Part shown: in pieces, positions 1 to 23,431 of the stretch | Position numbering within the stretch: the first letter of the stretch is position 1 | Layout: every line of letters begins with the position of its first letter | NCBI GenBank assembly: GCA_039630055.1 | Contig: JBCNVN010000004.1 | Span: forward strand, 19,811 to 83,810 | Direction: 5' to 3' | Origin: Candidatus Caldarchaeales archaeon | GTDB lineage: Archaea > Thermoproteota > Nitrososphaeria_A > Caldarchaeales > Wolframiiraptoraceae | Length of the DNA stretch: 64,000 nt | Position numbers and translations under genes: made by a program | The notes under the pieces: generated by a model | Database searches by the model: none | What the model saw: only the letters and a program-made list of their open reading frames with translations | Told to the model about the DNA's origin: nothing

Positions 1-1227
1 CTTCAATATATTCTCAGGGATCAAACGTTTGGCCTTCGGGCTTATGGCTTCAAGACCTATCTTGTTATCATTCTGAAGATCAACGGCAGGTAAGATCGTT
101 TGTCCTGGGACAAATGGATTATCGGGTGGGAGAGAGATGTGATGATTCATTCCTAAGAAGATTAGTCTATCAGGATGCTTTGTACCTGCTAGATACTCCT
201 TCAATATATGATAGAATAATACCTCCCATCTCGTATCAAATGAGACTGCTACTGTATCGGTAGTTCCCCAACCATAAAGCCCAACTATATCAGAGTCTTT
301 TCCAACGAACCATATCTTTCTTTCTTCAGCAACTTTGAGGGGTTCGACAGAGTCTGTGTAATGTGTGAGAACGTCGACTCCGAGATCAACCAATGCATGT
401 GAGACCTCTCTCTCCTTCGGTGGATCATACCACTCTCCAACGTATTTGATGTAAAGGGTAGCATCTGGATTAGCATCTTTTATCCCGAGATTGAATGCCG
501 CCATTCTTCTCCAATTCTGGACGCATGCTGGACCTACTGCAATTCCAATCTTGTTACTCTCAGTTATCGCTCCCGCAATCAATCCTTCTAGATACATTGC
601 TTGATATTGTCTTATGAAGACTCTCAAGAAATTCCTTTGAGATGATATATCGCTTCCCACTATTCCGAGGAAATATACATCTGGATATTCTGGAGCTACT
701 CTATGGAAAGATGGGACTGCTGCAGGCTCCCAGCTACCGAAAATAATGTTTGCTCCACCTACTGCTATCAAATCTTTAGCGGAAGAGATCGGGTCCTTAC
801 CCTTCAATACAACGCCTTCATCATATATATAATCAAACCATGGATAAAGTGTCTTCAACCTTTCTACTGCCTTTATCTGTCTACCATCCCATGTCGAACC
901 CTCTATATACCCACCTAGAACCATGCCCATGACAACCTTTAACCCCTTTGGAACCTCAGTTATCTTAGTCTCAGTACGCGTAACAGTACTAGTTACTGTA
1001 GTTGGTACAGTTACCGTAGTCGGTACAGTTACTGTGGCAGCGCCTACTGTGACTGTTCTTGTCTCCGTAAGAGTAGCAGGCGCCGCGGCGGTACTCCCTG
1101 CATAGTATCCTCCGACTCCTGCTACTATACCGGCGACGACTACTCCTGCAGCAACTTTTCCAGCTGTTGAGATAGCTTTCCTACGGGAAAGTTTTCTTAG
1201 TAATATTCTATCATCGCCTTCCTTCAT
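1..1227 (-). CDS. BMP-family ABC transporter substrate-binding protein with Tat signal (3' end runs off the window; absent from the ORF track)
   Basis: Manual translation from ATG at 1227 stays open to base 1. It begins MKEGDDRILLRKLSRRKAISTAGKVAAGVVVAG (twin-Arg plus hydrophobic segment), continues with a Thr/Val linker, then shows BMP-like motifs YLEGLIAGAITESNKIG, AFNLGIKDANPDA and YVGEWYDPPKEREV. Confidence 0.85.
   Translation of the reverse strand, partial: MKEGDDRILLRKLSRRKAISTAGKVAAGVVVAGIVAGVGGYYAGSTAAAPATLTETRTVTVGAATVTVPTTVTVPTTVTSTVTRTETKITEVPKGLKVVMGMVLGGYIEGSTWDGRQIKAVERLKTLYPWFDYIYDEGVVLKGKDPISSAKDLIAVGGANIIFGSWEPAAVPSFHRVAPEYPDVYFLGIVGSDISSQRNFLRVFIRQYQAMYLEGLIAGAITESNKIGIAVGPACVQNWRRMAAFNLGIKDANPDATLYIKYVGEWYDPPKEREVSHALVDLGVDVLTHYTDSVEPLKVAEERKIWFVGKDSDIVGLYGWGTTDTVAVSFDTRWEVLFYHILKEYLAGTKHPDRLIFLGMNHHISLPPDNPFVPGQTILPAVDLQNDNKIGLEAISPKAKRLIPENILK
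991..1035. repeat. 18-bp tandem repeat, about 2.5 copies, encoding the TVTVPT linker
   Basis: Units read agttactgtagttggtac / agttaccgtagtcggtac / agttactgt. Confidence 0.85.
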
Positions 1228-1468
1228 GACCTTTATTAAAGATGATGGGTAATATAAACGTTAACCATACATATTGTGATTTTTTCCCCTAGAAAACCCT
1301 TTCTTTAAACTCTATCTCTAACATGTCTATAGTTATGGAGTTAGAATTAGTAAGATGCAAAGATAATAAATACAGTTTTAGATACTATAAAGAGACCTGA
1401 AGATACAGGCTTTATCTTAGAAATAATTATTTTTATATTAATTTCATGGTATTTTGGAAGCTAGAAGT

Positions 1469-2284
1469 TTACTTTTCGTTTGCGAAAGCTACTATTCTAG
1501 CAAAGGCAGATTCGCCATCTTGGAACTTGAATGGGAAGGCTCCTATTATACATCTTCTATTGACTACTTTGCTTATCTCTCCACCCAGGTTCTCAGCATG
1601 TAGCACCATGTCAGGGAAAAGTTCAAGATGCATCAACTGGTAGTTCTTAGGCCATGGCAGTACCTCATCTATCTTCTTCCCCCACTTCTTCTCAGCTTCA
1701 GCCACCAGGTCAGGCCTAGCTCTCCTGATAACTGTGTTGAGAGGATGGTCTGCAGACATTGCATCTACACCTATCCATTTTATCTTCATATCTATACACC
1801 ATCTTGCAAAGCTCTCATCGGGACCTGGATGCTTCACCATATATCTAACTTCATCTGGCTCTGTTCCACACCAAGCATACTTATGATATCCAGTATGTAT
1901 TATGAGAATATCTCCCTTTTTGACCTCTATGCCTCCTTCTTTGGCAGCCTTCTTTATGGTCTCCGATGTATAGATATCGTAGTCTCCTACGTAAGGAGAT
2001 ATATCTACTATTACTCCTTCTCCTACGAGATAGTCTTCGAGGGGGAGGCTTGCTATATCTTTTCCACCCGTTACGAAGTGCATTTGGCTATCGAAGTGAG
2101 TCCCAAAGTGTAGTGAGGTCTCTATATATTGTGCGTTTACACCATGTTCTCCAAGCGTCTTTATCCAGTAGACCTTCATAGGTGGATACCACATGAAGGG
2201 TGGTTGCTTCCAGCTCGTCGGTTGAGATAAGTCGTAAATCCTAACCCTGCTCCAATCTACTATCTTACTCCAATCCAAAACCAT
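1469..2284 (-). CDS. Cyclase-family metal-dependent amidohydrolase (kynurenine formamidase/isatin hydrolase-like)
   Basis: HFGTHFD (HxGTHxD) motif, GDILIIHTG, IGVDAMSAD, HAENL and C-terminal ARIVA. Confidence 0.9.
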   Translation of the reverse strand: MVLDWSKIVDWSRVRIYDLSQPTSWKQPPFMWYPPMKVYWIKTLGEHGVNAQYIETSLHFGTHFDSQMHFVTGGKDIASLPLEDYLVGEGVIVDISPYVGDYDIYTSETIKKAAKEGGIEVKKGDILIIHTGYHKYAWCGTEPDEVRYMVKHPGPDESFARWCIDMKIKWIGVDAMSADHPLNTVIRRARPDLVAEAEKKWGKKIDEVLPWPKNYQLMHLELFPDMVLHAENLGGEISKVVNRRCIIGAFPFKFQDGESAFARIVAFANEK

Positions 2285-2438: not shown

Positions 2439-2888
2439 ATGAAGTTTGAAGGTAAACTAAATTTGAGATCTCGGAGAGAGGATGTCTGGAACTTTATATC
2501 AGAACCTGCTAAAGTTATTGAATGTGTCCCAGGCGTCGAAGAATACTCTCTCTCTGAAGGTAAGAGGATAACAGCAAGAGTTAAAGTATCTATCGGATTT
2601 ATTAAAGGAACTTTCCATACCTCTAGCAGTGTAGTTGAAGAAGACCATAGTAACTATACCGCCAAGTTGAAATTAGGTGGTTCAGGTGCAGGAAGCGGTT
2701 TTGATGCTTTAGTAGACATAAAGCTAAACGATATAGATGGTGGTACTGAGATGGTCTGGAAGGCTGATGTAAATGTTTCAGGACCACTAGGAAGCTTAGC
2801 TAAACCTATGCTAGAAGGTTATGTAAAAAAGCTTGTAGATCAGCTTTTCGACTGTATTAAACAGAGAGTTGTAAGCTCAAGTATTTAA
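2439..2888 (+). CDS. CoxG-like SRPBCC protein
   Basis: VWNFISEP..VIECVPG N-terminus, typical CoxG length, directly upstream of Mo-hydroxylase genes. Confidence 0.85.
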   Translation: MKFEGKLNLRSRREDVWNFISEPAKVIECVPGVEEYSLSEGKRITARVKVSIGFIKGTFHTSSSVVEEDHSNYTAKLKLGGSGAGSGFDALVDIKLNDIDGGTEMVWKADVNVSGPLGSLAKPMLEGYVKKLVDQLFDCIKQRVVSSSI

Positions 2889-2942: not shown

Positions 2943-5339
2943 TTGTCCTACAAGTATATTGGAAAACCCATTCCCCCTCAAGATGCATTCTATAAAGTTA
3001 CTGGAACCGCCCAATATACTCTAGATATAGACCTTCCAGGAATGCTTTATTCTAAACTAGTTACCAGCACCGTACCCCATGCGAAGATAAAGAGGATTGA
3101 TATAAGTAAGGCTGAAAAAGTTCCAGGAGTAGTCAAAGTCGTAGTAGGAAGAGATTTCCCTTACAGAGTTGGGATGTATGCTGGAGATAGAGATCTTCTA
3201 GCGATTGATAAGGTTAGATGGGTTGGCCACCCAGTAGCAGCCGTTATTGCAGAAGATCTAGAGGCTGCCGAGAAAGCAATAGATCTTGTTGATGTAGAAT
3301 ATGAAGAGCTGCCAGCAGTATTCGATCCATTAGAAGCTCTTAGACCTGATGCACCTTTAATCCATGAGAAGATGGAAGAATATAGACATTCTCCTGCGTT
3401 TAGACCCATACCTGGAACGAATATTGCAAATAAGTTCACGTTAGTTAAAGGTGATGTGGAGAAGGGTTTCAGAGAAGCGGACATAGTAATCGAGGGACAA
3501 TTTTACATACCTCATGTAAGTCATTCATACATGGAGGTTCAAAACGTTATTGCACATTATCATTTAGACGGAACCATAGAGATATGGACAAGCTGGCAGA
3601 ATGTTGCTCCTATCAGGCAGATCATGGCCCTATCTCTAGGAATACCACACAACAAGATTATAGTTAGGATCCCTTATGTTGGAGGAGGGTTTGGAGGTAA
3701 AGCTGGTCTAGGATGGGAAGCTCTAGTGGCCATACTCTCTAAAGAGGCTGGATACAGACCTGTAAAACTTATCTTATCAAGAAGAGAACAGTTTACATCA
3801 GCTGCAGTTAGAGAAGGATTCTACGGATTTGCTAAAGCTGGATTCAAGAAAGATGGCAAGTTTATCGCTTACGATGTTAAATTCATATTAGATGCTGGAG
3901 CATACGGAGACTACACTGTTAACGTTGGTAGAGCAGTCGGCTACTCTGCTGATGGAAGCTACGAGATACCTAACATCAAAGTTGAATCTCTAACTGTTTA
4001 CACGAATAAGATACCTACAACAGCTCTAAGAGGCTTTGGGTACCCTGAAAGCCACTGGGTTCTCGAACAGATTATGGATAGAGCAGCACAGAAGATCGGC
4101 TTGGATCCTGCAGAGATCAGGAGGATCAATCTAGTCAAGCCAGGTGTATCGGAGACGTGTACAGGTGAGAGGCTTAGAGAAGATGTTGGAGATCCTCAGA
4201 AAGTATTACAAACTTTACTAGAGGGGATAGAATGGGATAAGCCGATCGAAAGTCTGAAAGAACCATGGAGGATAAGGTCTAAAGGTTTAGCCCTATTCGT
4301 TAAAGGTCCAGCTCAGCCTCCGAATGCTTCCGCCTCGGCCATCTTAAAGTTTAATGAAGATGCTAGCGTAGACCTATTAGTCTCTACCGGTAACTTTGGG
4401 CAGGGAACTGTAACCGCTTTGATCCAGATCGTTGCAGAAGAGTTTGGACTACCATTAGAGAAGGTGAGGGTAGATTATATTAGAGATACCCATAAATCGG
4501 CTTATACTTGGCAGACTGTGGGAAGTAGAGGATTGTTCACAGATGGCATAGCTGTCTTGAGAGCTGTTGAAGATGCTAAGAAACAGATATTCAAAGTGGC
4601 CTCTGAAGTCTTGAGGTGTCCAGAAGAACATCTTGAACTTGTAGATGGAGAAGTAAGAGTAAAGGGGAGACCATGGGAGAGGATACCTCTAAAAGATATA
4701 GTGATGGGCTATACTTATCCTAACGGCAACTCTATTGGAGGTCCGGTAATAGGTAGAGGCGTATTCATGTCCACCCATACCACATATCTCGATCCTGAAA
4801 CAGGACAAGGAAATCCGACGATATTCCATACTTTTGGAGGTACAGCAGTAGAGGTTGAAATAAACTTGCTCACAGGAGAAGTCGAGGTGTTAAAGGCGGT
4901 ACAGGTACTCGACCTGGGAAGAGTGATTAACCCACTACTAGTCAAACAACAGGTAAATGGAGGACTTCTAATGGGTTTAAGCATAGGATTATATGAGCAG
5001 ATAAAATTCGATGAGAGAGGATGGGTTATAAATCCCAACTTTACAAATTACTACCTAGTAAGAATAAAGGATATTCCTAGAGAAGTTATTAGAAAGTTTA
5101 TTGAAACACCCCAGCTGGACGGTCCATATGGGGCGAGAGGGATCGGTGAGTTAACAATGATAGGGGTTGCTCCTGCTATAGCGAATGCAATATTTAGAGC
5201 AACAGGTGTAAAAATAGATCGGCTTCCATTAAATCCGGAAAATGTTTGGAAGGCTCTCAATGAGCAGAGACCCGACCTAGTTAGTGAAGCTATGAATAAG
5301 TTTCTAAAATTGGAAGAGAAGGTAGAGGTGAGAATTTGA
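2943..5339 (+). CDS. Xanthine dehydrogenase-family molybdopterin subunit (copy 1)
   Basis: KVTGTAQY, VGGGFGGK, ALRGFG, GNFGQG and GARGIGE (catalytic Glu) motifs. TTG start after a GGAGG RBS. Confidence 0.92.
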   Translation: MSYKYIGKPIPPQDAFYKVTGTAQYTLDIDLPGMLYSKLVTSTVPHAKIKRIDISKAEKVPGVVKVVVGRDFPYRVGMYAGDRDLLAIDKVRWVGHPVAAVIAEDLEAAEKAIDLVDVEYEELPAVFDPLEALRPDAPLIHEKMEEYRHSPAFRPIPGTNIANKFTLVKGDVEKGFREADIVIEGQFYIPHVSHSYMEVQNVIAHYHLDGTIEIWTSWQNVAPIRQIMALSLGIPHNKIIVRIPYVGGGFGGKAGLGWEALVAILSKEAGYRPVKLILSRREQFTSAAVREGFYGFAKAGFKKDGKFIAYDVKFILDAGAYGDYTVNVGRAVGYSADGSYEIPNIKVESLTVYTNKIPTTALRGFGYPESHWVLEQIMDRAAQKIGLDPAEIRRINLVKPGVSETCTGERLREDVGDPQKVLQTLLEGIEWDKPIESLKEPWRIRSKGLALFVKGPAQPPNASASAILKFNEDASVDLLVSTGNFGQGTVTALIQIVAEEFGLPLEKVRVDYIRDTHKSAYTWQTVGSRGLFTDGIAVLRAVEDAKKQIFKVASEVLRCPEEHLELVDGEVRVKGRPWERIPLKDIVMGYTYPNGNSIGGPVIGRGVFMSTHTTYLDPETGQGNPTIFHTFGGTAVEVEINLLTGEVEVLKAVQVLDLGRVINPLLVKQQVNGGLLMGLSIGLYEQIKFDERGWVINPNFTNYYLVRIKDIPREVIRKFIETPQLDGPYGARGIGELTMIGVAPAIANAIFRATGVKIDRLPLNPENVWKALNEQRPDLVSEAMNKFLKLEEKVEVRI

Positions 5340-6214
5340 GCTTCGGTTCTCCATACTTTACTCTACCGGAGTTTACCTATCATAAACCGAAGACTCTCAG
5401 TGAGGTCCTTGAGCTATTAGAGAGATATGGTGATGAAGCAAAGATCTTAGCTGGTGGAGTAGGCTTAATACCGTTTATGAAAGAAAGGCTTATCTCCCCT
5501 ACACATGTCATAGATATAAAAGAGATATCTGAGTTGAAAAAACTTGAATATAGAAGAGGGGAAGGATTAACTATTGGCGCCACTATCACATTCTCAGAGC
5601 TAGAATCATATCAGATAGTTAGGGAGAAGTACAAAGCTTTGTATCAAGCGGTAAAAATAGCTTCAGACAGTATAATAAGAAATAGAGCTACATTGGTAGG
5701 AAATATATGCGAGGCTATACCATGGGTTGATGGCCCACCTCCATTAATAGCCTATGATGCTGAAGTCGAGATTAGAAGCTTGGATAAGGTTAGAAGAGTG
5801 TTAGTCGCAGACTTCATTAAAGGCCCAGTAGAGACCGATCTAAAACCTGGAGAGATCGTTACCTCTATAAAGATACCTGATATACCTGATGATGCAAGAA
5901 GTGGATTCATAAAATTTAACACAGGATCGGAGTTCGCTCTAGCAACTATCTCTGCTTATTTGGTGATGAAGAAGGAGAAGAGAGATGTGAGGCTAGTCTA
6001 TGGAGCCATCTCTACTAAACCTATAAGAGCTTTTGAAGCTGAGAAAATCCTTCAAGGCGAAGACGACATAAGAAATCTTATACGTTTAGCAGCTGTAAAG
6101 GCTTCTGAGGAGGTTGAAGTCGTCTCAGACGTACTGGCTTCTGAAGAATATAGAAGACATCTCGTCAAAGTACTTACCATGAAGATTTTGATGGATTTGG
6201 TGGAGGATGATTAA
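5336..6214 (+). CDS. Xanthine dehydrogenase-family FAD subunit (copy 1)
   Basis: KILAGG, IRNRATLVGNIC and ASEEYRRHL. Confidence 0.92.
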   Translation: MSFGSPYFTLPEFTYHKPKTLSEVLELLERYGDEAKILAGGVGLIPFMKERLISPTHVIDIKEISELKKLEYRRGEGLTIGATITFSELESYQIVREKYKALYQAVKIASDSIIRNRATLVGNICEAIPWVDGPPPLIAYDAEVEIRSLDKVRRVLVADFIKGPVETDLKPGEIVTSIKIPDIPDDARSGFIKFNTGSEFALATISAYLVMKKEKRDVRLVYGAISTKPIRAFEAEKILQGEDDIRNLIRLAAVKASEEVEVVSDVLASEEYRRHLVKVLTMKILMDLVEDD

Positions 6215-6216: not shown

Positions 6217-6705
6217 ATGGTTCGAAGAATAAATCTAAAAGTAAATGGATATAGAAGAAGCGTTGAAGTAAAAGATAATGAACTGCTTCTAGATGTATTA
6301 AGAGATAAACTGAAGATAAAGGGTTTGAAGCCAGCTTGCTGGCGTGGTGAATGCGGTCTATGCACAGTTATACTGAATGGAAAACTTGTAAAGTCTTGTC
6401 TTGTTCTTGCTGTTGAGGTTGATGGTTCTGAGATTGTTACCGTTGAGGGTTTGGCTAGGGATGGTGAGCTAACACCATTACAGAGAGCATTCATAGAGCA
6501 TGGAGCACTACAATGCGGATTCTGTACACCAGCGTTCGTCCTCGCCTCCCATCAACTGCTACTCGAAAATCCCGATCCATCCGATGAAGAGATAAAAGAG
6601 AGATTAAGCGGAATACTCTGTAGATGCGGTACATATTATGAGATTATAGAGGCGATTAAGAGTGCATCAAAGTATTATCGAAAAGATGTTACTGATCGGT
6701 CATAA
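6217..6705 (+). CDS. Xanthine dehydrogenase-family 2Fe-2S subunit (copy 1)
   Basis: CWRGECGLC, QCGFCTP and CRC. Confidence 0.93.
   Translation: MVRRINLKVNGYRRSVEVKDNELLLDVLRDKLKIKGLKPACWRGECGLCTVILNGKLVKSCLVLAVEVDGSEIVTVEGLARDGELTPLQRAFIEHGALQCGFCTPAFVLASHQLLLENPDPSDEEIKERLSGILCRCGTYYEIIEAIKSASKYYRKDVTDRS
6387..6537 (+). repeat. 151-bp perfect inverted repeat, copy A (partner at 19066-19216)
   Basis: Base-by-base comparison shows it is identical to the reverse complement of 19066-19216. The flanks diverge immediately. Confidence 0.95.
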
Positions 6706-8634: not shown

Positions 8635-8928
8635 CTATCCTCCACCTATGATCTCTACCAAGTCTATTACGTCAATCGATATACTGTCATTCTCTCTGAG
8701 CGGTGTCTCAACCCCCTTCAAAAGCTTGATACTATGCCCATTAACCAAGACCATTAAATTATCCCTCAACCTACCTTCATGATACAATGTCTTCGTAAAA
8801 TCTTCTCCCAAGATTCTTGAAATATCTTCTATCAGCTCTCTAACATTTTTGGGGGTCTTGTCCAGTATGATCTCATCCCGGTTAGCAATCTCTTTTAATC
8901 TAGAGTATAATCTAACTCTAATACCCAT
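8635..8928 (-). CDS. MoaD/ThiS-family (SAMP-like) ubiquitin-fold protein
   Basis: VLVNG...LKG.ETPLREND and C-terminal GG. Start re-called at MGIRVRLY (8928); the ORF track starts at 9021. Confidence 0.85.
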   Translation of the reverse strand: MGIRVRLYSRLKEIANRDEIILDKTPKNVRELIEDISRILGEDFTKTLYHEGRLRDNLMVLVNGHSIKLLKGVETPLRENDSISIDVIDLVEIIGGG

Positions 8929-8975
8929 CTCATATTTTTGATATAGATGACCAGCATAAATATTTTCTATCGCTA

Positions 8976-9905
8976 CTATGAAAGACCTGTAATTAGGTTT
9001 ATCAGCTTCTCGGTAAGACATGTATTCTTTACATAGTCTAGGAAGGATGATAAGCCGGTCAATACTCCTAAAGTTATATCTAAACCAGAAGTATGTCCTC
9101 TTCTCGCAAGATTGAGGATCGAGTCTATAAAAACTCCTTCATCTCTTGAAGCTATAGAATACAGTAATTGATGTAAGTGCTCATCATAAAAACCATCTTC
9201 TGCATATTTTAAAAACATTGCACTCTCCCAACTAGTATGGCTAAAGAGAAATTCATCATCTAGCATTATCTTGGGAATTTGGAATTCTTCACCTATTATA
9301 TTTAAGAAGCTGATGAATCCGATCAAGAAATCATCGCCTGAGGGTGTGAATCCACCACCTACACCGATGAGATCCCTATAATTTTCAACTTTCCTTAATG
9401 GTTCCAAGTCTCCCCTCGAAAATGGATAGACTACTTCTATCAAGAATCTTCTCAACTGCTCTATCTCTAAGATAGGTATAATGCTAGAAGGTATCGAGTA
9501 AAGGATGATTATAGTGTTCAATCCTTTAATAAACATTTTCTCGTATATCTTCTCTCGGAGATCGTCTAGATGATTGATATTTCCAATCGGTAGAGATGAG
9601 TATCGCTGAGCATTCCTTAAATCGATCTCGATTCTTCCAATCCTAATTTTACTCTCTTCAATATCAATACGATCTCGTAGTTCGATTTGTAGGTAGAATG
9701 GTGTTTCGAGAGTTTTTTGAGAAATGTTTATGGTGTATGGAGACCGGACATTCTTCTGTGTTATTATTATCATATCTCTACATACTTTAACGTATATCGT
9801 ATTAGCGAATATATGATGGATTGAAAACTCACCATAATAATTATCTAAAATCTCTATAGCCTTCTCTCCAATACTTGATGCATATAATTTATATCCCATA
9901 CTCAT
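8976..9905 (-). CDS. DUF2877 protein (YlbF/AllH-like)
   Basis: LIGVGGGFTPSGDDFLIG and GHTSGLD motifs. Confidence 0.88.
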   Translation of the reverse strand: MSMGYKLYASSIGEKAIEILDNYYGEFSIHHIFANTIYVKVCRDMIIITQKNVRSPYTINISQKTLETPFYLQIELRDRIDIEESKIRIGRIEIDLRNAQRYSSLPIGNINHLDDLREKIYEKMFIKGLNTIIILYSIPSSIIPILEIEQLRRFLIEVVYPFSRGDLEPLRKVENYRDLIGVGGGFTPSGDDFLIGFISFLNIIGEEFQIPKIMLDDEFLFSHTSWESAMFLKYAEDGFYDEHLHQLLYSIASRDEGVFIDSILNLARRGHTSGLDITLGVLTGLSSFLDYVKNTCLTEKLINLITGLS

Positions 9906-15542: not shown

Positions 15543-16640
15543 TCCGAGAAACTGTGGTAGAAGAGATAGTACGACGGCTCCAGCTATGACAGATGTTATC
15601 TGACCACCTGTATTTGTTGCTATCGTATGCATCAGTATCCAGTTATCTGGATCTTCTTGACGAGCGATTAAATGAGCTGTCCTCGCGGCCATGGGGAATG
15701 CTGAGATACCTGTAGCTCCAATCAAAGGGTTTATCTTTCCTCCAGTTAGATAGTATGCTAGCTTTGCTGCTAGTAGCCCGAAAGATATGTCCGTTATGAA
15801 GGCTATGACTCCGAGCCCGAAGACCATAAGGGTTGAGAGATTTATGAATTTCTCTGCAAGCATGGTTCCACCAATACTCAAACCTAGTAATAGAGTCACA
15901 ATATTCGATAGTTCATTCTGGGCAGATTTTGACAGCCTCTCCACTACACCACACTCTTTTAAGAAGTTTCCAAACATCAAGGCCCCTATCAAAGGTAACC
16001 CTTTCGGAGCTATCAAACCTATTACGATCGTTACAATTATTGGGAAGATGACTTTTAATGTTTTAGGGTATCTTCCCGGCTTATAATACATTCGGGCTCG
16101 TCGCTCTCTTCTACTTAAAAGTAGCTTTGAGATTGGTACGAGGAGCAGCGGGGCGATAGAGATATACATGTAGGCTGAGACAGCTATAGGTCCAAGTAAA
16201 TCCTTTGCATATTTAGAGGCTACATATATTGCTGTCGGCCCATCCATGGCGCCTATTACGCCTATACTGGCGGCTCTCTCAGGTGTGAACCCTAGGGCCA
16301 AAGCTAAGGTGATTGTTAGGGGTATCCCTATCTGTGCAGGGATGGTCATAAGAAGAACCCATGGCATCTCAAAAAGGGGGCCGAAGTCTATCATGGCTCC
16401 AATACCGATGAAGATGAGGATTGGGAATATCTCTGTAAGTATACCGTAATCGTAAAGATATCTGATGAATCCTCCGACCTCCATCAACTCTCCGTATGGT
16501 ATGTTTACTAAGACTGCTCCAAACCCTATCGGGATCAAGAGTAGAGGTTCATACCCTTTCTTAACCGCTAAGTAGATGAGTACAAACCCGACAGCAATCA
16601 TAATTATATTGCCTGCATGTCCCAGTAAAAACTCCATCAT
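15537..16640 (-). CDS. mmdB: Na+-transporting decarboxylase beta subunit (OadB/MmdB family)
   Basis: YEPLLLIPIGFG, IGAMDGPT, INPLIGA.GISAFPMAAR; polytopic membrane protein. Confidence 0.92.
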   Translation of the reverse strand: MMEFLLGHAGNIIMIAVGFVLIYLAVKKGYEPLLLIPIGFGAVLVNIPYGELMEVGGFIRYLYDYGILTEIFPILIFIGIGAMIDFGPLFEMPWVLLMTIPAQIGIPLTITLALALGFTPERAASIGVIGAMDGPTAIYVASKYAKDLLGPIAVSAYMYISIAPLLLVPISKLLLSRRERRARMYYKPGRYPKTLKVIFPIIVTIVIGLIAPKGLPLIGALMFGNFLKECGVVERLSKSAQNELSNIVTLLLGLSIGGTMLAEKFINLSTLMVFGLGVIAFITDISFGLLAAKLAYYLTGGKINPLIGATGISAFPMAARTAHLIARQEDPDNWILMHTIATNTGGQITSVIAGAVVLSLLPQFLGS

Positions 16641-16649: not shown

Positions 16650-17039
16650 CTACTCAATCTCTATTAAACTATCGCCTGCATTAACAGAAGCTCCTTCTTG
16701 AACATATATCCGCTTCACTCTACCAGATGTAGGAGAATATATCATATTCTCCATCTTCATACTCTCCAATACTATTACAGGATCTCCAGCTTTAACCGGA
16801 TCACCTTCCCTACATTTTATCGATACTATAGTTCCGGGGATCGGTGCCCTCACCAGACCTCGTGCTTTTACTGTCTCAACCCTTGCCTCTGGAATAGGAG
16901 TTGGAGATATTCTCTTTTCCTCTCGTTGGGTTGGAATAACTGTAGGTGGAGGTGTCATAGCTACTTCTTCTACGCCAACCTCCTCAACCTCAACTTCGAA
17001 TACTTTACCTTCTACTGTCACTCGGAACCTTCTCTTCAA
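16650..17039 (-). CDS. mmdC: Biotin carrier subunit (MmdC-like)
   Basis: LESMKMEN biotinylation motif and a Pro/Thr linker. Probable TTG start at 17039 after GGAGAGGTG; the ORF track starts at 17057. Confidence 0.88.
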   Translation of the reverse strand: MKRRFRVTVEGKVFEVEVEEVGVEEVAMTPPPTVIPTQREEKRISPTPIPEARVETVKARGLVRAPIPGTIVSIKCREGDPVKAGDPVIVLESMKMENMIYSPTSGRVKRIYVQEGASVNAGDSLIEIE

Positions 17040-17040
17040 T

Positions 17041-17373
17041 TCAATGCACCTCTCCATCCCGTAAAGAATTTAGGATACTTGAAATCTTCCATATTGATGG
17101 AGGAGTTGGTGAGCCCTCTTTTATATGAACAGTTTTTGTAGTCTGAGATAAAGATGCGATTACAGCGCTAATTCCTGCGATTACTTCAAGGCTTTCTCCG
17201 ACGATCTTCTTTACTTCGATTTCAGGTTTTTCTTTGATTTCTACCGGTCTATGATATGTGGATCGTCGAAGTAGATAGATCATTATTAGTAGGATAAGGA
17301 CCCCTCCTGATACGTATAGCAGCCAGTTCAAGGTAAAGACTAGACTTAAATCGATATAATTAGTTGAGACCAC
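17041..17373 (-). CDS. OadG/MmdD-like membrane anchor subunit
   Basis: N-terminal TM helix, a VIAGISAVIA helix and S.WK near the C-terminus; lies upstream of mmdC/mmdB. Confidence 0.65.
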   Translation of the reverse strand: MVSTNYIDLSLVFTLNWLLYVSGGVLILLIMIYLLRRSTYHRPVEIKEKPEIEVKKIVGESLEVIAGISAVIASLSQTTKTVHIKEGSPTPPSIWKISSILNSLRDGEVH

Positions 17374-17574: not shown

Positions 17575-18342
17575 ATGTATGAAAACGTGATGGAAGAAGT
17601 AGGATTAAGAGATTCAAAGATCTATTTTTACGACGTTGTCAATTCCACTCAAGACTTAGCAAAAAGTCTCGGGTCGGTTGAAGAATTCACCGTGGTGGTA
17701 GCTAGAGAGCAACGCAGAGGTCGAGGGAGGATGGGGAGAGAATGGTACTCTCCTCTAGGTGGCCTATGGTTTACGATAATCCTATACCCTAAAACGCCTA
17801 TCTCAACTTATGCCATCCTTTCCTTATTAAGCTCATTATCGGTAGTCAGAACAATTGAAGACGTTACTGGACTTAAACCTTATATTAAGTGGCCAAATGA
17901 CGTATATTTGAATGGAAAGAAGGTTGCAGGAGTACTTGTAGAGTCAGATGTTATTGGAGAACTGATGATGAAAGCTTTTGTCGGGATAGGAGTGAACCTG
18001 AATTTTCGAATAGAATCAATACCTGAAAGACTTAGAGAAAGTGCAACAACAATCTTTGAAGAATATGGCAAGATGGTAGATACTGGAACCTTCTTATTAA
18101 AAATCCTACAAGAGTTAAAGAAGTATTATGGAGTATATAGAATCGGTTCCCATCAAAGATTAATCGAAGAGGTAAAGAGTAAGATGAACATGATTGGAAG
18201 AAAGGTCATAGTCTCTCTGGGTCATAGAGAATTGGTGGGCATGGTGAGAGACCTTGAGATGAATGGAAACCTAATCATCGAATCTTCAAATGTAAAGAAT
18301 ATTTTAAATCCCTCAGAGATCAAAAGACTAGAACTTATCTAG
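17575..18342 (+). CDS. birA: Biotin--protein ligase
   Basis: STQD, Q..GRGR.GR.WYSP, KWPND, KKVAGVL and GIGVN. Confidence 0.93.
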   Translation: MYENVMEEVGLRDSKIYFYDVVNSTQDLAKSLGSVEEFTVVVAREQRRGRGRMGREWYSPLGGLWFTIILYPKTPISTYAILSLLSSLSVVRTIEDVTGLKPYIKWPNDVYLNGKKVAGVLVESDVIGELMMKAFVGIGVNLNFRIESIPERLRESATTIFEEYGKMVDTGTFLLKILQELKKYYGVYRIGSHQRLIEEVKSKMNMIGRKVIVSLGHRELVGMVRDLEMNGNLIIESSNVKNILNPSEIKRLELI

Positions 18343-18902
18343 CTTCTAGCTCTATATACTATCTCTGAGAAATCTTTCCTCTTTAAGAGATATAGTATTA
18401 CTGCTATCTTCAGCCCGTCTCCTGGAAGAAATATTAACGCACCCATCGTTATCCCTCTACTTATTGCATCAGACAATACTATTCCAGAGAAATTTGATAA
18501 CCAGAAGATCAACCATGGAACACCAAGTCCATATATAACCAATTCAGCGATGATACAAGCGGTCAATGCCTTGATAATCCGCTTATCACTCATCGGATCA
18601 TAAAGTATACCTGTGATAGCTGCTGCTATTGGAAAAGATATTAGATATCCCGTAGTTGGACCTAAAAATGTTGTGAAACCTCCTCTAAAACCTGCGAAGA
18701 CAGGTAGGCCTGCTAAACCCATACCAAGATATATCATCTGGGATAGAAATCCAGTCTTGTATCCTCCAACTATCCCGGAAAGCATTATGAATAATGTCTG
18801 GAGGGTTATGGGAACTGGACCGATATAGAAAGCTATCTGGGCTCCGAGGAATGTAAAGACTGCAAAGATGCTTGATAAAACGATTAGACGGGTTTTAATC
18901 AT
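18339..18902 (-). CDS. bioY: Biotin transporter BioY
   Basis: PVPITLQT, GLPVFAG, GPTTGYL and FLPGD.LK. Confidence 0.93.
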   Translation of the reverse strand: MIKTRLIVLSSIFAVFTFLGAQIAFYIGPVPITLQTLFIMLSGIVGGYKTGFLSQMIYLGMGLAGLPVFAGFRGGFTTFLGPTTGYLISFPIAAAITGILYDPMSDKRIIKALTACIIAELVIYGLGVPWLIFWLSNFSGIVLSDAISRGITMGALIFLPGDGLKIAVILYLLKRKDFSEIVYRARS

Positions 18903-18918: not shown

Positions 18919-19389
18919 TTATTTTTCTTTTTTAGCGACGCTCAATATTGCATCTATTATCGGTTTGTATCCTGTACATCTACAGAGAAGACCATTCAAG
19001 GCTTCTACAACTTCTTCTCTTGATGGTTTTGGATTATGATTGATGAGCCAGTGACCTACTATCAAGAACGCTGGTGTACAGAATCCGCATTGTAGTGCTC
19101 CATGCTCTATGAATGCTCTCTGTAATGGTGTTAGCTCACCATCCCTAGCCAAACCCTCAACGGTAACAATCTCAGAACCATCAACCTCAACAGCAAGAAC
19201 AAGACAAGACTTTACAGGCTCACCATCCAATAAAACTGTACATAGTCCGCAATCCCCTCTTTCGCATGCTTTCTTCGTTCCTTTCAATTTAAGCCCATCC
19301 CTAATCAACCATAAGAGTGTCTTATTTGATTCTACTTCAAAGGTCTTCTCCACCCCATTTATCTTGAAGCTTATCCTTCTTTTCTCCAA
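18919..19389 (-). CDS. Xanthine dehydrogenase-family 2Fe-2S subunit (copy 2)
   Basis: CERGDCGLC, QCGFCTP and CRCTGY. Confidence 0.93.
   Translation of the reverse strand: MEKRRISFKINGVEKTFEVESNKTLLWLIRDGLKLKGTKKACERGDCGLCTVLLDGEPVKSCLVLAVEVDGSEIVTVEGLARDGELTPLQRAFIEHGALQCGFCTPAFLIVGHWLINHNPKPSREEVVEALNGLLCRCTGYKPIIDAILSVAKKEK
19066..19216 (-). repeat. 151-bp perfect inverted repeat, copy B (partner at 6387-6537)
   Basis: Reverse complement is identical to 6387-6537. Confidence 0.95.
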
Positions 19390-20250
19390 CTAGACCACCT
19401 CCATAATCTCTTTCAACAATCTTCTCGTCAAGACTCTCACAAGGTTCAACCTATACTCTGCACTTCCTCTAACATCTGATATAGGTGAGACCCTTTCTGA
19501 AGCGGCCTGAACTGCTCTTTCTATCTTATCCTCCAATGTTCCCGGTTTTGCGAAAGCTTGTTCTGCTTCCCTAACCCTGAGAGGTGTCGGGGCCACACTA
19601 GCGTATGCTAGCCGGATCCTTATATCACCATCTTCCCTGTATCCCAATCCAGCTACTCCGACAACGGCTAGATCTTCACTCCAAACCCTCATCATCTTCA
19701 AGTATCTTCCATAGTACTTTCGAGGTGGCTCAGGTATGAATACTTCCTTCACTATCTCCCATGGTTTTAACACAGTCTTCTTAACTCCTGTAAAGAAGTT
19801 TTCTAGAGGTATCTCTCGAGAATTTTCTCTACTTATGATTCTTACTTTTGCATCTAAGACTAGAAGTGAGGGTGAACTATCTCCTGCAGGGCTAGCAGTG
19901 CATATATTTCCGACGAGAGTTGCTCTATTTCTTAAGATCACATCACCGATGGTTTTCACAGCTTCCCATAAGACTGGATATTTATTCTTGACGACCTGAG
20001 ACTCTAGTATCTTCTTAAAAGTAACTGTGGCACCAATCGTTAATCCTTCTCCCTCTTTATAATCAAGTTTATTTAATTCTTTGATCTTCTTGATGTCGAT
20101 TATGTGTTTAGCCTTCTCTAGTCTCTCCCTCAATGATACGATCAAGTCAGTGCCACCAGCAAGAATCTTCGCATCATCTGCATATCTCTCAAGAATCTCG
20201 AACAACTCTTCAAGAGTTCGTGGAGAAAAATAACTAAATCTTGGAAGCAT
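19390..20250 (-). CDS. Xanthine dehydrogenase-family FAD subunit (copy 2)
   Basis: AGGTDL, RNRATLVGNICTASPAGD and PISDVRGSAEYR. Confidence 0.93.
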   Translation of the reverse strand: MLPRFSYFSPRTLEELFEILERYADDAKILAGGTDLIVSLRERLEKAKHIIDIKKIKELNKLDYKEGEGLTIGATVTFKKILESQVVKNKYPVLWEAVKTIGDVILRNRATLVGNICTASPAGDSSPSLLVLDAKVRIISRENSREIPLENFFTGVKKTVLKPWEIVKEVFIPEPPRKYYGRYLKMMRVWSEDLAVVGVAGLGYREDGDIRIRLAYASVAPTPLRVREAEQAFAKPGTLEDKIERAVQAASERVSPISDVRGSAEYRLNLVRVLTRRLLKEIMEVV

Positions 20251-20256
20251 CTTTTC

Positions 20257-22575
20257 TCACCTCTTCTTATTTATTGCTTTCCATATATTCTCGAAACTTA
20301 TCGGTAGATTATTGATATTGACCCCCGTTGCGTGGAAGATTGCATTGGCGACAGCGGTCGGGACAGATAACATGGATAGTTCTCCAACCCCTCTAGCTCC
20401 ATAAGGACCATCGCTTTGAGGATTCTCTATAACTACGATCTGGTGTTCTTCAGGAATATCTCCAGCTCTTGCAATCTTATAGTCTGTAAGATTAGGGTTT
20501 AACATCTTCCCATTTCCATCATATTTATACTCTTCCCAAATACCTAGACTGAGAGATTGAATGCATCCTCCGATTATCTGCCCTTCAACTAGAAGTGGAT
20601 TGATGGCTTTTCCTACATCGAATGCGGATACTAGTTTTAGGATCTTTACCTCACCTGTCTCGATATCGAGTTCGATCTCTACAGCTTGTGCTCCGAAAGT
20701 CCACTTGAGAGCAGGATATCCTTGCCCTGTCTCCGGGTCGAGATATGATAGTCTACTTCCTACATAGTATCCACGTCCAATCAGTGGACCTCCAATGGTA
20801 TTTCCATTTGGATATACATATCCAGCCGCTATATCTTTTAATTGTAGGCTCCACTCAGGTCTACCCTTAACCATTATTTTCTCATCTTCTATGACTAGGT
20901 CATCTTTAGGAACTCTAAGTACCTGGGAAGCTACCTCTAATATCTGTTCTTTAATATCTCTTGCAGCTCTAATAACCGCTCTCCCCTCCATGAATAAGTT
21001 CCTGCTAGCTACCGTCTGCCAAGAATATGGTGTCACATCTGTATGCCTAAATGGTACAACTTTTATCTTCTCTACTGGAACGTTCAACTCTTCTGCAGCC
21101 ATCTGAGCGAGAGCGGTAACCGTTCCCTGACCTATCTCGGTAACCCCGACAGAGATCAAGAAGGTTCCATCTTCATTTAATTTTATTATAGCAGAGGATG
21201 CAGCATTAGGAGGCATCGCAGGAGCCTTCCAAAGTGCAGCAACACCCTTCGCTCTCAGCTTATTTCCGCCAACTGATACTGGGCGGGTTCCCCATCCAAT
21301 CTTATCAGCCACTGCTCTAATACACTGGTCTATCCTACCAGCGTCTTCTCTTAACCTCTCTCCAGTAGGCGTTGTTAGACCGGGTAGAAGAGCATTCTTT
21401 AATCTAAATTCAACCGGATCCATACCTATCTCTGCTGCTATGATCTCTATCTGTCTTTCAATAGCCCATAGGAACTCAAAGTGTCCGAAACCTCTAAACG
21501 CTGTACCCCATGGATGGTTAGTATACACCGTTAAGGATTCGGCTTCTAGATTAGGTACGAAGTATGGTCCAGTACATGAATATCCTGCAGCTCTAGCTAT
21601 GTTCACTCCATAATCTGCATAGGCTCCTGCATCGAATATGTAAAGTATCTTTTCAGCCATGATCTTTCCATCTCTGGTTACACCCGTTTTTATTCTTCCA
21701 TAGAATCCCTGTCTAACTGGAGCCGTCATAAACTGCTCCTCACGTGTTAACTCAAGCATCACAGGTCTGTACCCTGCTTTCTTGGATAGGAGAACTACAA
21801 GCGGTTCAAAGTTTATTCCTGCCTTTCCTCCAAAACCTCCTCCAACATAGGGAACATAAACAGATATCTTATGTAATGGTATTCCGAGCGAGTAGCCCAG
21901 TATGTACCTAATGGCGAAAGGGCTCTGAGCAGATGTCCATATCTTGATGCTTCCATCTTTTAGATATTGACCTATGCAGACATGGGGTTCCATTGGAACA
22001 TGGGAGACCTGAGGCATAAGAAACTCGTTCTCAACTATTACCTCACTCTCTCTAAAGCCTTCATCTAAGTTCCCCTTCTTCACTATAAATCTATTAGCTA
22101 TGTTTGTCCCTGGAATAGGGTTGAAGGCTGGAGAATGAGCATACTCTCCTAGTTCTTCATGAACTAGAGGAGAGTCAGGCTTTAATGCATCCCTTACATC
22201 TAATACAGGTTTCAGCGGATCATATTCTACCTTTATCTGCATAACGGCTTCCTCTGCTGTCTCCAGATCCTCAGCGACAACTGCTGCGACAGGTTCACCA
22301 ACCCATCTAACCTTTTTCTTCGCCAAGATATTTCTATCATTTACATATAACCCTACTCGGAATGGGAAGTCTTCACCGGTGGCAATGGTTACAACGTTTG
22401 GCATCTTCAAAGCATTACTGAAATCTATTGATTTGATCCTTGCATGGGCGTATGGGCTTAAAAGCAACTTTGCATACAGCATTCCCGGAAGCTCGATATC
22501 TCCAGTGTACTCAGCTGAACCAGTAATTTTTTCTATCGCATCTATTCTTTGAATAGGTTTGCCAACATACTTCAC
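20257..22575 (-). CDS. Xanthine dehydrogenase-family molybdopterin subunit (copy 2)
   Basis: VGGGFGGK, AFRGFG, TEIGQG, WQTVASR and GARGVGE. Confidence 0.92.
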   Translation of the reverse strand: MKYVGKPIQRIDAIEKITGSAEYTGDIELPGMLYAKLLLSPYAHARIKSIDFSNALKMPNVVTIATGEDFPFRVGLYVNDRNILAKKKVRWVGEPVAAVVAEDLETAEEAVMQIKVEYDPLKPVLDVRDALKPDSPLVHEELGEYAHSPAFNPIPGTNIANRFIVKKGNLDEGFRESEVIVENEFLMPQVSHVPMEPHVCIGQYLKDGSIKIWTSAQSPFAIRYILGYSLGIPLHKISVYVPYVGGGFGGKAGINFEPLVVLLSKKAGYRPVMLELTREEQFMTAPVRQGFYGRIKTGVTRDGKIMAEKILYIFDAGAYADYGVNIARAAGYSCTGPYFVPNLEAESLTVYTNHPWGTAFRGFGHFEFLWAIERQIEIIAAEIGMDPVEFRLKNALLPGLTTPTGERLREDAGRIDQCIRAVADKIGWGTRPVSVGGNKLRAKGVAALWKAPAMPPNAASSAIIKLNEDGTFLISVGVTEIGQGTVTALAQMAAEELNVPVEKIKVVPFRHTDVTPYSWQTVASRNLFMEGRAVIRAARDIKEQILEVASQVLRVPKDDLVIEDEKIMVKGRPEWSLQLKDIAAGYVYPNGNTIGGPLIGRGYYVGSRLSYLDPETGQGYPALKWTFGAQAVEIELDIETGEVKILKLVSAFDVGKAINPLLVEGQIIGGCIQSLSLGIWEEYKYDGNGKMLNPNLTDYKIARAGDIPEEHQIVVIENPQSDGPYGARGVGELSMLSVPTAVANAIFHATGVNINNLPISFENIWKAINKKR

Positions 22576-22690
22576 TTATCATCACCCTCCTAATAATTTT
22601 TTACATCTTCAAATCTCTAAACCTCAATATATCTCTTCACTCTCCATATTTTATCGAAAAATAATTATAGGGTAGGATAAGATTGAGGTT

Positions 22691-23431
22691 TCAGAATTCT
22701 ATCTCGAATGTTGAAGTCGGTTTTAGAGGTATAGTCTTATTGAGCAAATCTTGGGGAACAGGTCTTTCACCCATAAGACCACGTTCTAGTAGAGATGGTT
22801 TAACAGACTTGTTCCACTGTTCTTTTGTTATATAGTATACTCTTGCTCCTCCAAGCTCATGTTGTACTTCGGGCCATGGCTTTGTTACATGTTGAAGTCT
22901 AAAGCCCATTCTAAAGCCGAAGGGACTTTCAAAAGTGGCCCACCATTCATTTACGCCAACTATATCGAATGCATGCTCTACCTTTGCTGCATAGAGAAAT
23001 ATCCCAAGCCTCTCGGCACGTTTAAAGACTATCGTATGGAGGCTTATACAGATATTCTCATTATAGTATCGATGGTTGACGAGCCCCATCAATTCTCCAT
23101 CTTTATTAGTTGCTACTATCACGTATCCATCCTTTAACCTATTCTGTGACCATGCCAATATCTCTGAATAAGTTCTTACGGCGACGAGGTGGTAAAAGTC
23201 TTTATCGTATTTGTGGTCGACCAATTGTTTCAGAGTTTGGAGCATAGCTGGTGCCTCATCTTTAGTTGCAGGTCGAACAATTATCGGCTCGCCACTTTTC
23301 AATCTATATATCTTGGGTGGGAAGGGTTTCTGGAATCTTTCATCGGGTGGAGCACCTCTTAGAAATTCTTCAATCTCATCTACTCCAAACTTAAATTCTT
23401 CGAAAGAGATAGGTACAACTGGCTTAACCAT
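22691..23431 (-). CDS. Divergent GNAT-like (N-acyltransferase-fold) protein
   Basis: IIVRPATKDEA N-terminal strand-helix, VIVA..DGELMG and a degenerate R..RLG CoA-binding loop. Upstream of and co-directional with Mo enzyme 2. Confidence 0.55.
   Translation of the reverse strand: MVKPVVPISFEEFKFGVDEIEEFLRGAPPDERFQKPFPPKIYRLKSGEPIIVRPATKDEAPAMLQTLKQLVDHKYDKDFYHLVAVRTYSEILAWSQNRLKDGYVIVATNKDGELMGLVNHRYYNENICISLHTIVFKRAERLGIFLYAAKVEHAFDIVGVNEWWATFESPFGFRMGFRLQHVTKPWPEVQHELGGARVYYITKEQWNKSVKPSLLERGLMGERPVPQDLLNKTIPLKPTSTFEIEF

Follow-up and report, generated by a model that had tools for sequence, protein, structure and literature searches.

Gene content and conservation of the island

We have analysed a window of 64,000 nucleotides from the genome of a Candidatus Caldarchaeales archaeon (G000:C34:19811-83810; feature coordinates are given in window numbering) and describe an island of ~23 kb at its start. 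The island encodes two sets of molybdenum hydroxylases of the xanthine dehydrogenase (XDH) family, a cyclase-family amidohydrolase, AllFGH-like proteins, a protein with a predicted GNAT fold, an Mmd-type biotin decarboxylase and PrpB/PrpD. Its core recurs in distant archaeal and bacterial lineages and the island most likely burns nucleobases for energy by an undescribed route, a reading which, in the full form proposed below, is given a probability of roughly 0.45. The source genome comprises 1.54 Mb in 80 contigs with 39% G+C and is 92% complete, a figure that applies to all searches for absent genes in it. Window proteins were scanned with Pfam and with NCBIfam at its equivalog cut-offs, and every gene named in the initial annotation of this DNA was found where it had been placed. 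The features are as follows, lengths being given in amino acids (aa) and ORF standing for open reading frame.

L001:15983-19489, just left of the window: BMP transporter ATPase (ABC_tran) and two permeases (BPD_transp_2)
1-1227, minus strand: BMP/PnrA-family substrate-binding protein, running off the window start (PF02608, E=3.5e-28)
1469-2284, minus strand: cyclase-family metal amidohydrolase, 271 aa (PF04199, E=4.4e-35)
2439-2888, plus strand: CoxG (SRPBCC), accessory protein of XDH set 1 (PF06240, E=9e-28)
2943-5339, 5336-6214 and 6217-6705, plus strand: XDH set 1, large, FAD (flavin adenine dinucleotide) and 2Fe-2S subunits, respectively (Pfam domains)
6885-8522, minus strand: FdrA/AllF-like protein (NF004760, 425 bits against a cut-off of 433; Ligase_CoA and CoA_binding domains)
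8635-9021, minus strand: MoaD/ThiS/SAMP-like beta-grasp protein (TIGR01687, 52.6 bits, above the cut-off of 49.5)
8976-9905, minus strand: AllH-like protein, DUF2877 (PF11392, E=2e-20, 74 bits)
9889-11157, minus strand: AllG-like protein, DUF1116 (PF06545, E=6.6e-85, 284 bits)
11323-12252, plus strand: PrpB (TIGR02317, 410 bits, above the cut-off of 354)
12240-13601, plus strand: PrpD-family protein (PrpD-family domains; below all three equivalog cut-offs)
13959-15542, plus strand: MmdA-type carboxyltransferase (PF01039, E=9.5e-197, 655 bits; TIGR01117, 782 bits, below the cut-off of 999)
15537-16640, minus strand: OadB-type Na+-translocating decarboxylase beta subunit (TIGR01109, 378 bits, above the cut-off of 190.6)
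16650-17057, minus strand: biotin carboxyl carrier protein, BCCP (Biotin_lipoyl domain)
17041-17373, minus strand: 110-aa membrane ORF, possible delta/gamma anchor (hydrophobic N-terminus, no Pfam match)
17575-18342, plus strand: BirA biotin-protein ligase (TIGR00121, 172 bits, above the cut-off of 83)
18339-18902, minus strand: BioY biotin transporter (PF02632, E=2.8e-39)
18919-19389, 19390-20250 and 20257-22575, minus strand: XDH set 2, 2Fe-2S, FAD and large subunits, respectively
22691-23431, minus strand: protein with a predicted GNAT fold and no Pfam family (AlphaFold2 and Foldseek)

The MoaD/ThiS-like protein ends in GGG, its true start is likely Met32 (~8928) and the position of its gene is kept in same-genus genomes. 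A 90-aa ORF at 11286-11558 on the minus strand belongs to no family, overlaps the PrpB start and was treated as spurious. Upstream of the island, beyond the transporter genes, lie a PadR/ABC-2 unit and then GINS, MCM, Hel308 and PolB, and Cdc6 and RFC follow downstream of 23431. With replication genes on both sides, the archaeal origin of the island and its boundary at 23431 therefore hold. G+C is level across the window, at 0.37-0.45 in 2-kb windows.

AllG was found in 16 of 41 related genomes and 13 of its neighbourhoods were compared, G004 and G013, in which AllG lies on short contigs, being left out. The arrangement of the island is syntenic in all five same-genus genomes whose AllG neighbourhood was compared, in the order BMP-ABC transporter, cyclase, CoxG-XDH set 1, FdrA-MoaD-AllH-AllG, (PrpBD), MmdA, OadB-BCCP-anchor, BirA, BioY-XDH set 2-GNAT, and is therefore no accident of assembly. 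Within the genus, PrpB/PrpD are missing at the island position in G002, citrate synthase sits between MmdA and PrpD in G006 and G007, and four of the five genomes have an extra 303-aa gene that separates the BMP gene from the cyclase. Outside the genus, where eight genomes were compared, the kept core consists of cyclase, AllG/AllH, FdrA and XDH, and no OadB, BCCP, BirA, BioY, PrpB or PrpD occurs in the stretch compared. Extras in these genomes are the GNAT-like gene (G009, G011, G030), a carboxyltransferase (G035, G038, G030), an amidase (G040), a MoaD-like gene and a CodA-like amidohydrolase. Two relatives carry interrupted genes: G027 holds AllG as fragments with an in-frame TAG (G027:C3:50137-50989) and the GNAT-like gene of G035 (G035:C45:3528-4196) is interrupted by an in-frame TGA, perhaps a sign that these genomes are losing the cluster.

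The GNAT-like gene and the recurrent core

The best Pfam match of the ORF at 22691-23431 is PF13302 (Acetyltransf_3) at E=0.034 and 15 bits against a cut-off of 25, and the NCBIfam scan returned no match. An AlphaFold2 model was obtained with a pLDDT (predicted local distance difference test) of 89 and a pTM (predicted template-modelling score) of 0.86. Foldseek matches of this model listed from the PDB are GNAT acyltransferases or annotated putative acetyltransferases, except for one uncharacterised protein, with E values of ~1e-6 to 1e-5 and, for single-domain targets, template-modelling scores of 0.5-0.69 when normalised to target length. By its model, the protein has a GNAT fold. Its closest named relatives are in Ca. 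Geocrenenecus (89% identity) and Ca. Caldarchaeum, by which the source organism is assigned to the Caldarchaeales; the family numbers 340 homologues at E<=0.001, and 36 columns are invariant in 32 sequences that range down to 39% identity.

A scan of one genome per species yielded at least 561 relatives of this gene, and the analysis was confined to the 80 best loci, each with flanks of up to 10 kb; among these, 43 are at least 15 kb long, the island families were mapped with phmmer, and absence refers to the DNA of the locus. AllFGH genes of any kind occur in 42 of the 80 loci (AllG 35, FdrA 37, AllH 31), XDH large subunits in 34, the cyclase in 20 and CoxG in 12, accompanied by BMP proteins (18), ABC transporter parts (25) and a CodA-like amidohydrolase (10). 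The biotin enzyme is represented by the MmdA-type carboxyltransferase (14), OadB (7), BCCP (9) and BirA (6); PrpD occurs in two loci and PrpB in none of the 80. By record title, the lineages of the loci include Caldarchaeales, Nitrososphaerales, Bathyarchaeia, Desulfurococcales/Pyrodictiaceae, Hadarchaeota and Scotarchaeum among the archaea, and Anaerolineae/Chloroflexota, Thermotogaceae, Spirochaetales, Methylomirabilota and Acidiferrales among the bacteria. The XDH, cyclase, AllFGH and GNAT-like genes are co-located across at least eight distant lineages, and the core cluster recurs in lineages that include Caldarchaeales, Nitrososphaerales, Bathyarchaeia, Desulfurococcales, Chloroflexota and Thermotogaceae. 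AllG is present in all 13 GNAT-bearing genomes among the 41 relatives and in all 14 in a sample of 401 genomes of the phylum, only three of the 14 lying outside the order. The GNAT-like gene is a hub that joins AllFGH/XDH clusters to Mmd clusters across phyla. The core, with its GNAT-fold, AllFGH, cyclase, WQTV-type XDH, CoxG and BMP-ABC transporter genes, is uncharacterised as a cluster and widely distributed; the grouping of the N-heterocycle genes into one unit, as the initial annotation had it, is borne out by this recurrence.

Genes of CoA chemistry also surround the GNAT-like genes, namely the alpha subunit of ADP-forming acyl-CoA synthetase (3/80), ACS-like ligases (3/80 and G011), a CoA-transferase pair and a CitF/CitE-like pair. 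Among the loci that lack AllFGH, the recurrent other neighbours are NUDIX, PALP-PadR and housekeeping genes, all in one lineage. In Nitrososphaerales, a GNAT subclade (L072-L082, L087) stands away from AllFGH/XDH, with an adjoining NUDIX hydrolase in 12 loci and OTCase-family and amino-acid kinase genes nearby in 5-6 loci. In an Anaerolineae metagenome-assembled genome (L124), the unit FdrA-AllG-cyclase-GNAT is tandemly duplicated; adenine deaminase and AllH stand before the duplication, and an NmrA-like gene and an XDH set come after it.

Both XDH sets are complete by Pfam domains, with Mo-pterin large, FAD and 2x[2Fe-2S] subunits, and the large subunit of set 2 is 53% identical to that of set 1. 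All XDH subunits fall below every NCBIfam cut-off, those of XdhA, PucD and XdhB included, the best being NF043082 at 498 and 567 bits against 780. The large subunits carry, by pattern and not by structural alignment, the motifs GGGFGGKAG, ALRGFG or AFRGFG, WQTV and GIGE, the G-E motif. The Ala in GGGFGGKA of both stands at what we take to be the position of the purine-binding Glu of xanthine dehydrogenases, and the Arg of A[LF]RGFG and the Glu of the G-E motif are presumably the Arg and the catalytic Glu of these hydroxylases. ALRGFG/AFRGFG occupies the place where carbon monoxide dehydrogenase (CODH) has a Cys loop (form I) or AYRGAGR (form II). Compared with solved structures, the large subunits match 4-hydroxybenzoyl-CoA reductase, quinoline oxidoreductase, CODH and XDH at similar scores. 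WQTV is present in 25 of the 32 full-length XDH large-subunit ORFs near GNAT-like genes, from six or more lineages, and is missing from the two other copies in the source genome (C12, C18). The motif thus marks the 'WQTV-type XDH' named in the initial annotation as a real subfamily tied to the cluster. On contig C18, XdhC and MobA-like genes adjoin a third XDH set, and the Mo-cofactor genes MoaC, MoaB/MogA-like and MoeA lie at 49970-52916 of the window, 27 kb downstream of the island.

The three AllFGH subunit families of the island are adjacent on one strand. In E. coli, AllFGH is an oxalurate phosphorylase by experiment and shares an operon with carbamate kinase, and it is characterised only in that organism (PMC11326118). 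The island resembles this system in that FdrA/AllF, DUF1116/AllG and DUF2877/AllH are encoded together and in that carbamate kinase, for which the initial annotation had proposed a genome search, is encoded in the genome as a partial arcC at a contig edge (C23:5-577, 247 bits, model positions 120-308) and inside the cluster in relatives. A full arcC lies beside the cyclase in G015 (442 bits, above the cut-off of 358), the G035 cluster holds an AA_kinase gene which was not scored against arcC, and carbamate kinase-like matches occur in five of the 80 GNAT-anchored loci, that in L077 being weak (26.8 bits). Both systems presumably phosphorolyse an N-acyl-urea, forming carbamoyl phosphate and from it ATP. 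The island differs in that a MoaD-like gene is inserted in the operon and no allECD-type genes for the preceding pathway steps were seen, AllD (PF02615) not being found in the source genome (AllC and AllE were not searched). The partners are instead XDH, the cyclase amidohydrolase and the GNAT-fold protein, and the substrate of the island AllFGH is probably not allantoin-derived oxalurate. A TIGR03178 'allantoinase' match on C1 was rejected, as it is the dihydroorotase (PyrC) next to PyrB (aspartate carbamoyltransferase). Archaeal allFGHK genes in nitrifier genomes have been read as serving uptake of external oxalurate for nitrogen (PMC12625717); the word 'cyclase' is absent from the main text of that paper on ammonia oxidisers.

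The cyclase adjoins AllG or FdrA in relatives and its sequence holds HFGTHFDSQMH. It shares the PF04199 domain and the His/Asp metal motif region with kynurenine formamidase and isatin hydrolase but is very distant from them, with a best PDB match to solved kynurenine formamidases of E=7e-7 and 37 bits on the arylformamidase model TIGR03035 against a cut-off of 223. It further differs by a C-terminal extension to 271 aa and by a ureide rather than a tryptophan context.

The biotin decarboxylase and the prp genes

MmdABCDE of Veillonella and Propionigenium consists of an alpha carboxyltransferase, an OadB-type beta subunit, a biotin carrier and a small membrane subunit. The island shares the alpha, beta and carrier proteins, and its small membrane ORF may be the remaining subunit; it differs in that its Mmd is not coupled to a mutase or epimerase and stands beside BirA, BioY and the GNAT/XDH genes. 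The source genome contains a single carboxyltransferase (tblastn), one BCCP and one OadB, Mmd is the sole biotin enzyme found in it, and BirA and BioY are placed at the island for this reason. No methylmalonyl-CoA mutase (PF01642; tblastn), no MeaB or epimerase (tblastn with the proteins of relatives) and no biotin carboxylase were found in the source genome, so that Mmd is without a classical substrate source. The link of Mmd to the rest of the island is supported by this lack of a classical source of methylmalonyl-CoA.

The GNAT-like gene has an MmdA-type carboxyltransferase at a distance of up to 10 kb in 14 of the 80 GNAT-anchored loci, the smallest gaps being 36, 100 and 632 bp. Three of these loci are from the genus of the window, one is L070, and the ten others are from Caldarchaeum (two), a Thaumarchaeota-labelled genome, Scotarchaeum, Bathyarchaeota (one), Hadarchaeota (two), Desulfurococcales (two) and Spirochaetales (one). 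In L123 and L102, the carboxyltransferase occurs together with OAD_gamma, BCCP and OadB, with OAD_gamma at the position analogous to that of the 110-aa ORF. On a GNAT tree of 81 rows, the state 'Mmd nearby' was scored for the 64 rows with a locus of at least 10 kb, 13 of them positive, and changes at least 10 times; the Mmd link is therefore not one inherited block. Among the 41 relatives, OadB is present in nine and AllG in 16, with both in six (all of one genus), OadB alone in three and AllG alone in ten. Co-conservation of the mmd genes with the XDH/cyclase/AllFGH genes, as first proposed, thus stands in part: the link recurs in distant lineages, and the overlap of OadB and AllG stays within one genus.

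Caldarchaeum-type genomes differ from MmdABCDE in holding only a divergent carboxyltransferase. This protein, of 467-481 aa and 38-47% identical to the MmdA type (G030:C1:485307-486662, L053, L056), is flanked by XDH and AllG. G030, a complete genome, has a single Carboxyl_trans gene, which is part of the XDH/AllG/cyclase/GNAT cluster, and neither OadB nor a clear BCCP nor biotin carboxylase was found in this genome; the divergent G030 protein may be a biotin-independent enzyme.

PrpB and PrpD, which the initial annotation had joined to the same island, are co-conserved with it in the genus only. The prp genes are not near the cluster in the eight genomes outside the genus or, PrpD in two loci aside, in the 80 GNAT-anchored loci, and at genome level PrpB is uncoupled from AllG: it exceeds the cut-off in nine of the 41 relatives, eight of which have AllG, G023 has PrpB without AllG, and eight AllG genomes are without PrpB. 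It makes sense to see in PrpB/PrpD a propionyl-CoA/methylcitrate module added at genus level, with a metabolically sensible place beside Mmd. Citrate synthase is single-copy in the source genome, on another contig, and its in-cluster counterpart in G006/G007 is 78% identical; a putative methylcitrate route is the only sink for propionyl-CoA visible in the source genome.

Proposed route, rival explanations and significance

Neighbouring genes in other genomes point to nucleobases as substrates. For the recurrent 'Amidohydro_3' (CodA-like) gene, cytosine deaminase models give the best scores (263 bits, cut-off 438), and the gene is found in G002, G011 and G030 as well as in the ten loci counted above. 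The 303-aa gene resembles in its N-terminal half a TudS-related desulfidase model, on which it scores 96.8 bits (cut-off 130). This TudS-related gene, placed between BMP and cyclase genes (L020:8560-9471 in a sister genome; also L098, L113, L115 and L128), is present in four sister genomes and in four of the 80 loci, and was not found by tblastn in the genome of the window. TudS desulfurates thiouracils (PMC10611767). NCS2 permeases occur in six of the 80 loci, the Thermotogaceae one being nearest uracil permease and that of L123 (Desulfurococcaceae) nearest xanthine permease. On contig C9 of the source genome (G000:C9:14900-21400, L131), a cytosine deaminase above NCBIfam subfamily cut-offs lies beside a second BMP-ABC transporter. 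Adenine deaminase is present in three of the 80 loci: in Anaerolineae, where it scores 574 bits on TIGR01178 (cut-off 472) directly upstream of AllH-FdrA-AllG-cyclase-GNAT, and in L126 and L118. The pyrimidine substrate of the initial annotation finds support in the uracil-producing context genes elsewhere (CodA-like, TudS-related), and the adenine deaminases point to purines instead. The substrate of the core is most likely an oxidised N-heterocycle and most likely a nucleobase, with pyrimidines slightly favoured.

Oxidative pyrimidine breakdown in Rhodococcus proceeds through uracil/thymine dehydrogenase, barbiturase and ureidomalonase. We know of no sequence model for the dehydrogenase or for ureidomalonase, and literature searches returned no paper naming their genes. 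The barbiturase model PF09663 gave no match in the source genome, a blank without weight since the control was silent in 14 of 14 genomes. The proposed route would share with the Rhodococcus pathway its start, hydroxylation of a nucleobase by an XDH-type enzyme, as well as ring opening to an acyl-urea with a malonyl-type skeleton. In contrast, a cyclase-family hydrolase would replace the AtzD/TrzD-type barbiturase, the ureide would be phosphorolysed rather than hydrolysed, and the malonyl unit would be a CoA ester decarboxylated by a Na+ pump. Urease was not found in the source genome.

In the scheme that we propose, the BMP-type ABC transporter would import nucleosides or bases, and the two paralogous WQTV-type XDHs, with CoxG, would hydroxylate the ring, for example converting uracil or thymine to (5-methyl)barbiturate. 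The cyclase-family metal amidohydrolase would then hydrolyse a bond of the ring or an amide bond, leaving an N-acyl-urea, the ureido group of which would be phosphorolysed to carbamoyl phosphate by the AllFGH-type carbamoyltransferase, and carbamate kinase, encoded elsewhere in the genome, would use carbamoyl phosphate to make ATP. The GNAT-fold protein may move the remaining carboxy-acyl group, of malonyl type, onto CoA. In a second unit, decarboxylation of this acyl-CoA, with pumping of Na+, would fall to the biotin decarboxylase of Mmd type, which is made up of alpha, beta, BCCP and a small anchor and has BirA and BioY to serve it. A third, genus-specific unit of PrpB/PrpD and the single citrate synthase would act as the propionyl-CoA sink, or the route may end in acetyl-CoA and an ADP-forming synthetase, homologues of which lie on C78 and C1. 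What is observed are the family memberships, the GNAT fold of the model, the synteny and the repeated co-location, whereas the substrates, the sequence of steps and the direction in which the GNAT-fold protein would work are inferred. A version of the scheme specific for pyrimidines is doubtful, with the odds clearly against it.

A number of observations weigh against this scheme. No island enzyme reaches an equivalog cut-off that names a substrate, and the adenine deaminases inside the clusters of Anaerolineae, another Chloroflexota locus and Hadarchaeota argue for purines there. AllFGH is absent from the DNA of 38 of the 80 GNAT-anchored loci, and one Nitrososphaerales GNAT subclade has NUDIX and housekeeping neighbours in its place. 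By our own reasoning, a GNAT protein running from an amide or ureide to a thioester would be thermodynamically unusual. With respect to the decarboxylase, one of the 14 carboxyltransferase loci, L070, also encodes biotin carboxylase, mutase and epimerase and its enzyme is therefore a carboxylase; the carboxyltransferases beside GNAT-like genes form no clade of their own, being mixed with carboxylase-type proteins, with only the Caldarchaeum type distinct; and an independent-pairs test of Mmd-nearby against AllFGH-nearby on the GNAT tree revealed no trend. Within the order, the overlap of OadB and AllG is limited to one genus, with ten AllG genomes lacking OadB, and in G001 (a 95% complete genome of the same genus), G026 and G029, OadB occurs and AllG and the GNAT-like gene do not.

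Some of these observations are those expected of a purine catabolic cluster acting on adenine, hypoxanthine or xanthine, in which XDH would yield xanthine or urate, the cyclase and other hydrolases an oxalurate-like ureide, and AllFGH with carbamate kinase would harvest carbamoyl phosphate, with Mmd/BirA/BioY and PrpBD as unrelated neighbours devoted to amino-acid or organic-acid fermentation. The oxalurate phosphorylase activity and carbamate kinase partner of E. coli AllFGH, the adenine deaminases of the Anaerolineae locus, L126 and L118, the permease of L123 nearest xanthine permease, and the genome-level uncoupling of OadB and AllG in the order are all consistent with such a cluster. It would, however, be at odds with the XdhA and PucD cut-offs, which both XDHs miss, and with the Ala that both large subunits have for what we take to be the purine-binding Glu. 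AllD was not found in the genome, the sole allantoinase-model match is a dihydroorotase beside PyrB, and CodA-like (10/80) and TudS-related genes (4/80) are commoner than adenine deaminase (3/80). Purine catabolism would also leave the adjacency of GNAT-like and carboxyltransferase genes, and the missing substrate source of Mmd, without explanation, and we consider it rather unlikely as an account of the whole island.

An explanation that is less probable still is mere juxtaposition of unrelated modules in a variable region, with the XDHs acting on aldehydes or other non-nucleobases, AllFGH scavenging ureide nitrogen and Mmd separate. The FAD and Fe-S subunits do score best on archaeal glyceraldehyde dehydrogenase models, with all XDH subunits below the cut-offs, and the modules do separate, as G009 lacks Mmd and Prp in the stretch compared, G002 lacks PrpBD and G001 has Mmd without AllG; external oxalurate uptake for nitrogen, the reading of archaeal allFGHK referred to above, would also fit. 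Juxtaposition is opposed by the co-location of XDH, cyclase, AllFGH and GNAT-like genes in at least eight distant lineages, by the motif-defined XDH subfamily specific to the cluster, by the nucleobase transporters and deaminases in the same clusters and by the sole carboxyltransferase of a complete genome (G030) being embedded in the cluster. It is also very improbable that the two CoxLMS-like sets are aerobic CODHs: their ALRGFG/AFRGFG loop has no Cys and is of neither CODH signature form, TIGR02416 gives 315-341 bits against a cut-off of 991, and the context is one of AllFGH, cyclase and nucleobase genes. This CODH reading is favoured by the CoxG gene of the island and by the multiple CoxL/M/S of Caldarchaeales genomes, annotated as aerobic CODH (PMC10547907).

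Returning to nucleobase oxidation with energy conservation, there is a fair chance that the island encodes a new pathway, the kind of which, nucleobase catabolism with harvest of carbamoyl phosphate, is already known. Literature searches, supplements aside, found neither a pathway joining XDH, a cyclase hydrolase, AllFGH, a GNAT-fold protein and a biotin decarboxylase nor an archaeal oxidative pyrimidine pathway, and the main text of the Wolframiiraptoraceae paper contains no occurrence of xanthine, purine or methylmalonyl. A bolder and distinctly speculative extension would be a widespread undescribed anaerobic 'ureide-to-acyl-CoA' nucleobase pathway, in which XDH would turn pyrimidines into barbiturate-type rings and purines possibly into 5-substituted barbiturates, the cyclase would open them, AllFGH would lead through carbamoyl phosphate to ATP, and a new GNAT-fold ureide/amide:CoA acyltransferase would load the substituted malonyl residue onto CoA ahead of decarboxylation by a biotin-dependent Na+ pump. 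If this is true, one nucleobase would yield energy at up to three points, and in Caldarchaeales, Nitrososphaerales and Bathyarchaeia many enzymes annotated as 'aerobic CO dehydrogenase' would be nucleobase hydroxylases. The routine CODH reading of CoxLMS-like genes in reconstructions of uncultured archaea would thereby be corrected.

In sediments and hot springs, much carbon, nitrogen and energy is stored in nucleic acids, and anaerobic routes for burning their bases are poorly known, above all in archaea. The island offers a concrete and testable enzyme set in Caldarchaeales, soil Nitrososphaerales, Bathyarchaeia, Desulfurococcales, Hadarchaeota, Chloroflexota and Thermotogaceae. Through the proposed route, a conserved GNAT-fold family without a Pfam model would acquire a function, the role of AllFGH would extend beyond allantoin and Na+-pumping biotin decarboxylases would have a new substrate source.

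Three further observations concern the surroundings of the island. Inteins, seen as Intein_splicing domains inside AAA+ modules, are present in MCM (L001:9227-11929) and in the RFC small subunit (window 26102-28414). Two neighbouring ORFs of 760 and 128 aa on the minus strand at 53387-56115 have no Pfam match at E<=1e-8. An actin-family (crenactin-like) gene lies at 35559-36836 of the window, amid housekeeping genes.

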